A DNA stretch of 35,245 nt from Promethearchaeota archaeon (GTDB lineage: Archaea > Asgardarchaeota > Lokiarchaeia > Sigyniarchaeales > SOKP01): the NCBI GenBank assembly GCA_019894975.1, contig JAGXNO010000038.1, positions 1 to 35,245 on the forward strand, given 5' to 3'. The notes below the pieces were generated by a model, which had not been told where the DNA came from, did no database searches, and saw only the letters and a program-made list of their open reading frames with translations. The position numbers and the translations under genes were made by a program. Shown piece after piece: positions 20,183 to 21,814 of the stretch (position 1 is its first letter; each line of letters opens with the position of its first letter).

Positions 20183-21535
20183 TTATTTACTCTTCTCTAC
20201 AACCGAGGTTCCCACGTCTATGTCCTTAACTATCCCTACACATGCTGTCCTTCCCATATCCCGTACAGCAAATCTGCCCATTTCTGGAAAGTCATTATAC
20301 TTTTCGAGGCACATTTTCTTGATCGGGGTTAATTCTACGATTGCTGATTCGTTCCTCTTAAGAAACTTAGGATTATCCTCAATTACAGCACCAGTTTTCT
20401 GGTCTAATTTTTTAAGTAAGGCACTAAATTTAGCTGCAACTTGAGCTGTATGAGCATGAACTACAGGTGTATAGCCTTGTGCGATTGCGGTTGGATGCCA
20501 TATTACTATAATTTGTCCTGTCCATTTACCATTTGGATTAATTACAGTAGGAGGATTATCTACATGACCTAAGCAATCCCCTCGAGTTGCATCTGCTCTT
20601 GTGAGTCCTCTGATGCTAAATCCGATATTATCTCCAGGAACAGCTTCTTTAATTTCCTCATGATGCATTTCTATGCTTCGAATTTCCCCTTTAAATCCTG
20701 TAGGCATGATAACAATCTTATCTCCTGTTTTCATAACGCCTGTCTCTACTCTACCGACTGGGACTACACCTTGTCCTTTGATGCTATAACAATCTTGGAC
20801 AGGAAGTCTTAATGCTTTGCCTGTTGGTTTCTCTGGAAGGACAAATTGATCAATAGCATCGATAAGGGATGGACCATCATACCATGACATCTTATCGCTT
20901 TTCTTTGCTAAATTTTCCATTGCCATTCCACTGGTAGGAATGAAGGGTACATCTTTTAACCTAAAGCCTATATTTTTTAGGAGATCACCAACGGATTCCT
21001 TTACTTCATTATAGCGATCTTCACTATAATCATACACATCGGCTTTATTTACTGCAACAACAAGTTGCTTTACACCTAAAGTCTGTGCCAAATACGCGTG
21101 TTCTCGGGTTTGCCCATTAGCAGCAATTCCGACCTCCATTTCACCTTTCTTTCCAGAAACGACGAGGATAGCTGCATCTGCTTGAGATGCACCAGTAATC
21201 ATATTCTTGACAAATTACAATACCAGCTTGAATTAAGCTGGTAAATCTGCATGTCCTGGTGCATCAATAATGGTAAAATAGCGGTTAGGTGTCTCAAACT
21301 TGCGAAAGGCTAAATCGATTGTAATACCACGTTGTCGCTCTTCTTTTAACTTGTCAAATACAAAAGCATATGACCATGATTCACGATCGTATTCTTTAGC
21401 AAGTTTCTCTAATTCACGAGCTTCTCTTTCGGTTACTGAGCCCGTTTCGATAAGCAGAGCGCCCATCATAGTACTCTTGCCGTGATCTATGTGTCCGATT
21501 ATTACCAAATTCAAATGTTCTTTTTCAGTTGGCAT
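20183..21535 (-). CDS. tuf: Translation elongation factor EF-1alpha, join(complement 21245..21535, 20183..21214), 440 aa after removal of a 30-nt insert
   Basis: [18 protein letters not shown] and DAPGH in exon 1; [26 protein letters not shown] and GRFAVRDMG in exon 2. Both halves are in the same frame and otherwise intact. Confidence 0.93.
21215..21244 (-). other. Putative 30-nt BHB-type pre-mRNA intron in EF-1alpha
   Basis: Insert UUACCAGCUUAAUUCAAGCUGGUAUUGUAA has two in-frame UAA stops, a 9-bp perfect stem, and bulge-helix-bulge geometry whose cut sites match the boundaries required by protein homology. Confidence 0.85.
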
Positions 21536-21814
21536 AATTCATTAATTTCCTCTATTAATTATTATTTATATCTTTAATATTTAAATTTCTATAAAAATTA
21601 TTTTTATTAGATGTTATTTGTAAATGTCGATGAGTTTATATTTTTTACTATAATTTACTCTTAATTTTCGAGGACTATAACCAAAAAACTAGTAATTATT
21701 TTAAAATTTCAAGAAGAATATTCCAAAGAATTAGAGAAGATAATAAGAATAAAAAACTATAGATTGTTAATTAAGGTAATACAACAAAAAAAATACGAAA
21801 TAGCTGATACTAGA

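Follow-up and report, generated by a model that had tools for sequence, protein, structure and literature searches.

The gene for EF-1alpha in a Promethearchaeota archaeon lies on the minus strand of contig JAGXNO010000038.1 (assembly GCA_019894975.1), which was analysed as one stretch of 35,245 nt, the window, whose coordinates are used below unless another contig is named. Its reading frame is interrupted by a 30-nt insert, running from 21244 to 21215 in the direction of the gene, which is in frame in length and contains two in-frame TAA codons. The first exon (21245..21535, minus strand) contains codons 1-97, beginning with the ATG at 21535-21533 and ending in ...GHAD, and the second (20183..21214, minus strand) supplies 343 codons from FVKNMITG... 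to the stop codon at 20183-20185; the minus strand reads ...GAT GCA CCA GGA CAT GCA GAT before the gap and TTT GTC AAG AAT ATG... after it. The N-terminal piece matches positions 2-97 of the NCBIfam EF-1alpha profile and the C-terminal piece positions 98-422. The insert therefore lies between two adjacent profile positions, and deleting the 30 nt gives a seamless protein of 97 + 343 = 440 residues. Alignment of a full-length relative (P0122) to the locus covers residues 1-434 at 93-95% identity, with '2 TAA' as the sole lesion. Because there is a run of T at the junction, shifting the insert by +1 or +2 nt leaves the product unchanged. Gene callers give two open reading frames (ORFs) for the gene, of 100 aa and 339 aa. 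A preliminary description of this DNA had proposed that removing 21215-21244 restores a complete 440-aa EF-1alpha and that standard annotation would miscall the gene as split, and both statements agree with these results, as does its label 'Asgard-like' with the closest proteins, which are named Promethearchaeota or Lokiarchaeia in their sources.

In the RNA, the insert and its flanks can be folded into a bulge-helix-bulge motif, all elements of which lie on the minus strand. Exon 1 contributes the 5' strand of a central helix, GCAG (21247..21250), paired at all four positions with UUGU (21217..21220) within the putative intron through two Watson-Crick and two G.U pairs. This helix is bounded by two 3-nt bulges, AU^U (21244..21246) and AA^U (21214..21216), in which cuts are predicted after 21245 and 21215, respectively. 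Flanking helices are present on both sides. On the intron side, a hairpin (21221..21243) consists of a perfect 9-bp stem (21235-21243 with 21221-21229) and a 5-nt loop, AAUUC. On the exon side, GACA with U21251 (21251..21255) faces UGUC with U21213 (21209..21213), the two U residues standing opposite each other, and the whole motif is closed by a further 10-bp exon-exon helix of perfect complementarity between GAUGCACCAG (21256..21265, DAPG codons of exon 1) and CUGGUGCAUC (21186..21195, TGAS codons of exon 2). RNAfold of 55 nt (dG -17.9, z -3.1) returns the 9-bp intron stem, a (U)GCAG/UUGU(A) helix, opposed 3-nt unpaired stretches and the 4-bp GACA/UGUC helix, and thus all of the pairings that had been proposed from the sequence beforehand. 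The 93-nt fold that includes the 10-bp exon-exon helix is more extensive (dG -33.3 kcal/mol, z -4.8), and 0 of 200 shuffles were as stable. All ten pairs of this outermost helix are Watson-Crick only in three intron-bearing alleles, compared with 5-9 of 10 in 57 other distinct sequences, in which the partial matches seem attributable to amino-acid constraints alone.

Archaeal EndA cuts bulge-helix-bulge motifs after the second nucleotide of each bulge, and RtcB ligates the exons. All three frame-restoring registers of the insert were scored against this geometry, that is, four helix bases, two bulge bases and then the cut. Only the canonical register has a fully paired (4/4) central helix, together with the 9-bp inner stem and 4 of 5 outer pairs. 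In silico, cuts after the second nucleotide of each bulge excise 21215-21244 precisely and bring profile positions 97 and 98 together, so that the coincidence of EndA-rule cuts with protein-restoring boundaries, which had been claimed previously, is also obtained by register scoring. The scoring geometry agrees with the published placement of the first two bases of the anticodon within the central helix of a canonical pre-tRNA (PMC4090602).

Related inserts and the splicing machinery of the host

Full-length EF-1alpha was searched against 161 Lokiarchaeia species genomes, of which 157 gave a match, and interrupted loci were then analysed. Including that of the window, EF-1alpha has six insert sites, occupied by inserts of 29-33 nt. 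The other five are GH|ID (31 nt; L088, genome G117), GHID|HGK (29 nt; L090, G070), HG(K)|ST in the P-loop (31-33 nt; nine species of three genera), FVK|NM (31 nt; L045:2807-2837, JGI 3300005253), which came from contigs encoding a truncated N-terminal piece, and GR(T)|VAV near the C-terminus (30 nt, in frame; L084, G093). At each site exactly one frame-restoring register has a 4/4 central helix between 3-nt bulges, for example AUGG AA^A ... CCAU AG^A, which gives CAT GGA AAG TCA (HGKS), or UUAA AA^G ... UUAA AC^A; the GH|ID register (GGAC/GUUC, bulges AU^U and AA^A) was derived by hand, the script having found no solution there. The inner hairpins differ in sequence from site to site while the stem-loop is kept, and the insert at FVK|NM has a 9-bp stem and a 5-nt loop like those of the window, the stem sequence being unrelated.

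Further details were recorded at two of these sites. The P-loop inserts are found in three congeners of the present genome (L085, L086 and L087 in G004, G087 and G001) and in L089, L091, L092 and L081-L083; their central helix is always AUGG/CCAU, their inner hairpins differ, and the genome of the window has no P-loop insert. The FVK|NM insert of L045 lies 10 nt downstream of the window's site and uses a UUAA/UUAA central helix. The FVK|NM insert is also present in GCA_004196255.1 and in the LCGC14_2459250 contigs from Loki's Castle; public records annotate the gene as a hypothetical protein of 110 aa with an ORF of 359 aa after it. No full-length EF-1alpha match was obtained in G005 (same genus, single contig), G086, G092, G071, G079, G114, G157 or G036, the best E-values there being mostly 1e-21 to 1e-26; weaker partial matches occur in G145 (4e-29) and G132 (4e-35). 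That the single-contig genome G005 gave no full-length match is odd; in these genomes the gene may carry more interruptions, or may have been masked or passed over by the first-look filter.

Within the genome of the window, a scan for a loose bulge-helix-bulge motif combined with ORF fusion, controlled by a mirror-geometry decoy, places the EF-1alpha site at the top score of all 842 hits. The loose motif occurs at a frequency of about 1.3e-4 per position and length in this genome. Under strict thresholds (inner stem >=7 bp, outer helix >=4 bp, length 20-45 nt) 6 hits remain against 1 in the decoy. The scan is noisy and insensitive, having missed an insert in dnaG. This 37-nt insert (C87:33420-33456; L094:521-557) splits AIFGQ|TEGLL of dnaG, with the Toprim domain in the downstream part. 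A 31-nt bulge-helix-bulge-like insert (C101:40055-40085; L093:856-886) splits a gene of the AMP-binding (acyl-CoA synthetase) type, whose halves match PF00501 at 25-194 in the upstream and 207-384 in the downstream ORF. At C175:73269-73308 (L095), a motif of 40 nt whose inner stem has 7 bp would join a frame of 102 codons to an ORF of 398 codons from the URO-D family, the Pfam match of this candidate lying in the downstream part only. A histone-like frame at C110:~33286 ends at TAG after ...GADLVAAEVN.

The host encodes the enzymes that such an intron would need. Two EndA paralogues, on contigs C22 and C55, score above the TIGR00324 and PF01974 cut-offs; the ORFs of the pair lie at L034:1165-1773 and L035:1210-1812. 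As read from the sequences with no structural alignment, the C22 protein retains the Tyr/His/Lys positions and the C55 protein has Phe and no His there, so that the pair would comprise one catalytic (C22) and one non-catalytic, structural (C55) subunit. This pair fits the (alpha-beta)2 EndA reported for Asgard archaea, which has an L1 loop conferring broad substrate specificity (PMC5829648). RtcB is encoded on contig C90, at locus L036. ARAGORN detects 29 tRNA genes in the genome, 13 of them with anticodon-loop introns of 8-384 nt, which suggests that many tRNA genes are interrupted at positions that ARAGORN misses. These numbers are in line with a 2026 preprint in which heavily interrupted Asgard tRNA genes are described.

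These observations bear on the possibility that the 30 nt are removed by a route other than EndA and RtcB, or represent a small mobile palindromic element that folds this way by chance. In its favour, two G.U pairs and a U.U mismatch make the motif a relaxed one. At each of the six EF-1alpha sites, however, the predicted cuts fall where the EndA rule places them, the insert has no second copy within the genome when up to 6 mismatches in 30 nt are allowed, and the exact pattern of the intron hairpin has 0 matches in the species-genome collection, in which near-identical records are possibly not included. Without other copies in either set, the insert lacks the multiplicity by which a miniature inverted-repeat transposable element or insertion-sequence remnant is recognized. 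We regard this alternative as improbable. A group I or group II intron is excluded, since 30 nt are far too few to hold a catalytic core, which takes hundreds of nucleotides, and no Rfam family matches even at an E-value limit of 1.

Occurrence of the insert, selection on the gene and RNA contigs

The 30-nt insert is real DNA. Three runs of the probable source study contain all sampled 31-mers of the EF-1alpha gene, and an unrelated permafrost metagenome run yields a contig of 436 nt (21101-21536) that matches the window without a difference, also across the insert. Nine contigs from ENA and JGI assemblies carry a gene call for the exact 100-aa N-terminal ORF, with the 339-aa ORF behind it where the contig leaves room, and the same split is found in assemblies from several ENA samples and one JGI sample. 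In aligned DNA, the insert is present in L040-L042, which are identical, in L043 and L044, and partly in L039. When JGI metagenome contigs were scanned by exact pattern for the window-type junction, in either spliced or unspliced form, there were 0 matches, near-identical records possibly not being included there.

Outside this group no insert was found at the window's site, the count being 0 of 40 relatives and 0 of 156 other Lokiarchaeia species genomes with an EF-1alpha match, and it is also absent from contig L038, which belongs to the same 90% protein cluster and is ~4-5.2% diverged from the window. Thus, the putative intron is young and polymorphic at about the species boundary. Alignment across relatives in this way resolved presence and absence of the insert, L038 and others lacking it, and among the three diverged intron-bearing alleles available it revealed no compensatory double change.

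Several shorter forms were set aside during this survey. P0129 (339 aa) was considered as a diverged split allele and rejected, as its contig is L038, without the insert, and the short call results from an upstream TGA on a 2x-coverage contig. The C-terminal pieces P0006, P0148 and P0150 are most likely contig-edge truncations and not introns, since P0148 and P0150 lie on one 8787-nt contig on which P0150 is annotated as partial. Logan contig L051 (P0142), from a different species at 79% identity, was uninformative.

The genome consists of 175 contigs and is 95% complete, with an estimated contamination of 8.55%. No second EF-1alpha was found in it, the next-best match being SelB, which scores above the curated SelB cut-off. 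This SelB (472 aa; C44:70430-71848, L002:1210-2628) suggests that this Lokiarchaeon probably makes selenoproteins.

Comparison of the window with three diverged intron-bearing alleles suggests that the gene is still working under very strong purifying selection. Synonymous and non-synonymous changes number 20 and 1 in L039 (proportion of synonymous differences, pS, 0.09), 11 and 0 in L043 (pS 0.16) and 34 and 0 in L044 (pS 0.32), a total of 65 versus 1, and the ratio of non-synonymous to synonymous proportions (pN/pS) is <=0.014 in each comparison. A ratio of 65 to 1 at pS up to 0.32 is not the pattern of a pseudogene. The intron itself changes less than synonymous sites, with 2 changes in 65 compared bases versus 65 in ~402 sites (Fisher p = 0.0035, a value that is indicative and not exact as the alleles share ancestry). 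One of the intron changes, A21215G in L039, affects the second base of the 3' bulge, and an exon change in L043, C21209U, converts an outer G-C pair to G.U with pairing retained.

The distribution of differences around the site is uneven. In L038, 15 of 66 differences from the window are packed into ~85 exon bases around the intron site (window 21179-21293). L043 and L044 are near-identical to the window for ~50 nt on either side of the intron (window 21174-21280), L044 having 1 exon difference in 77 nt there versus about 8% elsewhere. The near-identical flank coincides with the 10-bp exon-exon helix; either selection for pairing or a recent sweep of this segment through the population may account for it.

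In RNA, metatranscriptome run X9 contains a contig of 1147 nt that covers 20183-21347 except for exactly 30 nt missing at the site. Of its 34 differences from the window, 30 lie in the 5' half. Its 3' part carries variants of the intron-bearing allele L039, and 10 of its 13 variants at 21179-21293 are also those of the intron-less L038. The contig, at first read as spliced mRNA, was accordingly not counted as evidence of splicing, being a mosaic that is L038-like around the junction and not assignable to an intron-bearing strain; it stems either from transcription of a recombinant allele without the intron or from chimeric assembly. L038-type junction variants on an otherwise L039-like backbone look like a recombination tract in which intron-bearing and intron-less junction segments were swapped. 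Neither RNA run X17 nor DNA run X5 has a contig across the junction, the loose ends there belonging to EF-1alpha of other organisms (DAPGHRD, DAPGHSD and DAPGHKD types).

A recent inactivating insertion, or an artefact of assembly or binning, with functional EF-1alpha supplied from elsewhere, could be argued from an insert that is unique to one lineage among the 157 genomes with a match, from the intron-less allele L038 in the same species complex and from the fragmentation and estimated contamination of the assembly. The recurrence of the insert in independent assemblies and in the unrelated permafrost run, the lack of a second EF-1alpha in the genome, with SelB as nearest paralogue, and the excess of synonymous change, combined with conservation of the insert itself, speak against both forms of this explanation, which had been named in the preliminary description as findings that would overturn an intron. 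We consider it very improbable.

A probable tRNA-type intron in EF-1alpha pre-mRNA

Combined, these results make it likely that 21215-21244 is a bulge-helix-bulge, or tRNA-type, intron in the EF-1alpha pre-mRNA of a Lokiarchaeia archaeon, and the EF-1alpha mRNA very probably has to be spliced. Splicing of this mRNA by the tRNA machinery had been suggested in the preliminary description, and the suggestion is supported by the cut register, the single copy, the independent assemblies, selection on the gene, the presence of EndA and RtcB and the five further sites. Cleavage and ligation themselves are predictions from sequence. In the proposed pathway, GCAG of the exon would pair with UUGU of the intron to form the 4-bp central helix flanked by the bulges AU^U and AA^U, with the 9-bp intron hairpin inside the motif and the exon-exon helix (4 bp + 10 bp) holding the exons together outside it. 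The heteromeric endonuclease, composed of catalytic EndA from C22 and structural EndA from C55, would cut after the second base of each bulge, and RtcB (C90) would join the exons to give ...GCAGAU|UUUGUC.... The predicted spliced junction is GGACATGCAGAT|TTTGTCAAGAAT, and a circular intron would be recognized by ...GGTATTGTAA joined to TTACCAGC....

A number of observations weigh against an intron of this kind. The central helix is weak, two of its pairs being G.U, and the U.U mismatch between the central and outer helices makes the motif relaxed and not textbook. The minimum-energy fold pairs U21251 with A21216, which extends the central helix to 5 bp and would put the 3' cut off by 1 nt. It is nevertheless the 4-bp helix proposed initially that agrees with the canonical geometry as well as with the reading frame, although it is not the helix of lowest energy. 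In one allele, G21224A introduces a C.A mismatch into the 9-bp stem. The intron is confined to one lineage, with neither deep conservation nor a compensatory double change. At loose thresholds, the genome-wide scan shows no enrichment over the mirror-geometry decoy (842 vs 892 hits), any excess being limited to the strict thresholds. Finally, the only RNA contig across the site, that of X9, is without the 30 nt, but it resembles the intron-less allele at the junction.

Two further alternatives leave the insert in the mRNA. Ribosomes might hop across it during translation, as they do in phage T4 gene 60, which it resembles loosely in having a stable hairpin within the gap and an in-frame stop after the break. 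As read from the sequence, however, the GAU take-off codon has no counterpart, GAU or GAC, where landing would occur, and the first stop comes only at codon four within the gap and does not directly follow take-off; in addition, the six EF-1alpha sites have bulge-helix-bulge geometry in common and not codon identity, and the 31- and 32-nt inserts at other sites need exact removal, all of which leaves hopping with hardly any likelihood. Least probable of all is separate translation of the two ORFs, with the 100-aa and 339-aa pieces assembling as a split EF-1alpha: gene callers do find both and the second begins with ATG (MITGAS...), but the break falls between the GTPase DxxGH motif and the adjoining FVKNM, so that FVKN would be lost and LPA added, reading of the 30 nt by eye, with no formal test, finds no ribosome-binding context, and inserts of 29, 31 and 32 nt elsewhere shift the frame and leave a 5' piece (~15-20 residues at the P-loop sites) out of frame.

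If the insert is a tRNA-type intron, its history can be sketched only tentatively. A joint reading of the data, which we regard as possible but doubtful, is that a young intron is still polymorphic within one Lokiarchaeial species complex, in which alleles with and without the intron occur side by side and trade the junction segment through homologous recombination, the latter being proposed because the divergence of L038 is clustered at the site and the X9 contig is a mosaic. The intron would have settled where synonymous codons offered, or were then tuned to, a perfect 10-bp exon-exon helix, and would be one event in an ongoing wave of ~30-nt gains into the most conserved motifs of core genes.

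Published tRNA-type splicing of an archaeal coding sequence was found for a single gene, cbf5, in Crenarchaeota. The cbf5 pre-mRNA intron is known from Desulfurococcales and Sulfolobales (Yokobori 2009, PMC2738675) and is the closest system in the literature; it had been named as the archaeal precedent at the outset. Both cases involve a short intron with a relaxed motif inside an archaeal coding sequence, a host with a hetero-oligomeric splicing endonuclease of broad specificity, and gain or loss among close relatives. The cbf5 intron was reportedly also treated by Watanabe in 2002 and by Yoshinari in 2006. The present case differs in its host gene, EF-1alpha, and its phylum, Asgard (Lokiarchaeia), in being polymorphic within a species-level cluster, and in belonging to a set of ~30-nt introns at six sites in one gene and in other genes of the same genome; splicing has been shown experimentally for cbf5, whereas for EF-1alpha it is predicted.

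Archaeal tRNA introns, whether canonically or non-canonically placed, whose hBHBh' motif was reportedly described by Marck and Grosjean in 2003, provide the second comparison. As in those introns (PMC4090602), a 4-bp helix stands between two 3-nt bulges in which the cuts are made, flanking helices are present, the size is within the tRNA-intron range and the same enzymes are predicted to act. In contrast, the EF-1alpha motif lies in an mRNA with no tRNA body, its exon side is made of the DAPGHAD and FVKN codons, and a 10-bp exon-exon helix of codons takes the place of the anticodon stem. Repeated, recent and lineage-specific bulge-helix-bulge gains in the same lineages are likewise a feature of the Asgard tRNA-gene introns in the 2026 preprint, a study that covers tRNA genes only, while the present intron interrupts a protein gene. 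Full-text searches of the literature retrieved no description of introns of this kind in Asgard coding sequences, and a 2025 paper on archaeal splicing endonucleases refers, for introns of protein genes, to the cbf5 papers only.

EF-1alpha is a classic phylogenetic marker. If it is interrupted as proposed, an essential, highly expressed, single-copy translation factor would depend on tRNA-type splicing in Asgard archaea, and endonuclease-type mRNA splicing would be part of routine gene expression in the archaeal lineage closest to eukaryotes. Genes miscalled as split affect completeness estimates, phylogenomic marker sets and metabolic reconstructions. A young, polymorphic case also provides a handle on how such introns arise and spread, and, should the tentative history outlined above be correct, these Lokiarchaeia would constitute a natural system in which intron gain, spread and loss could be watched at the population level.

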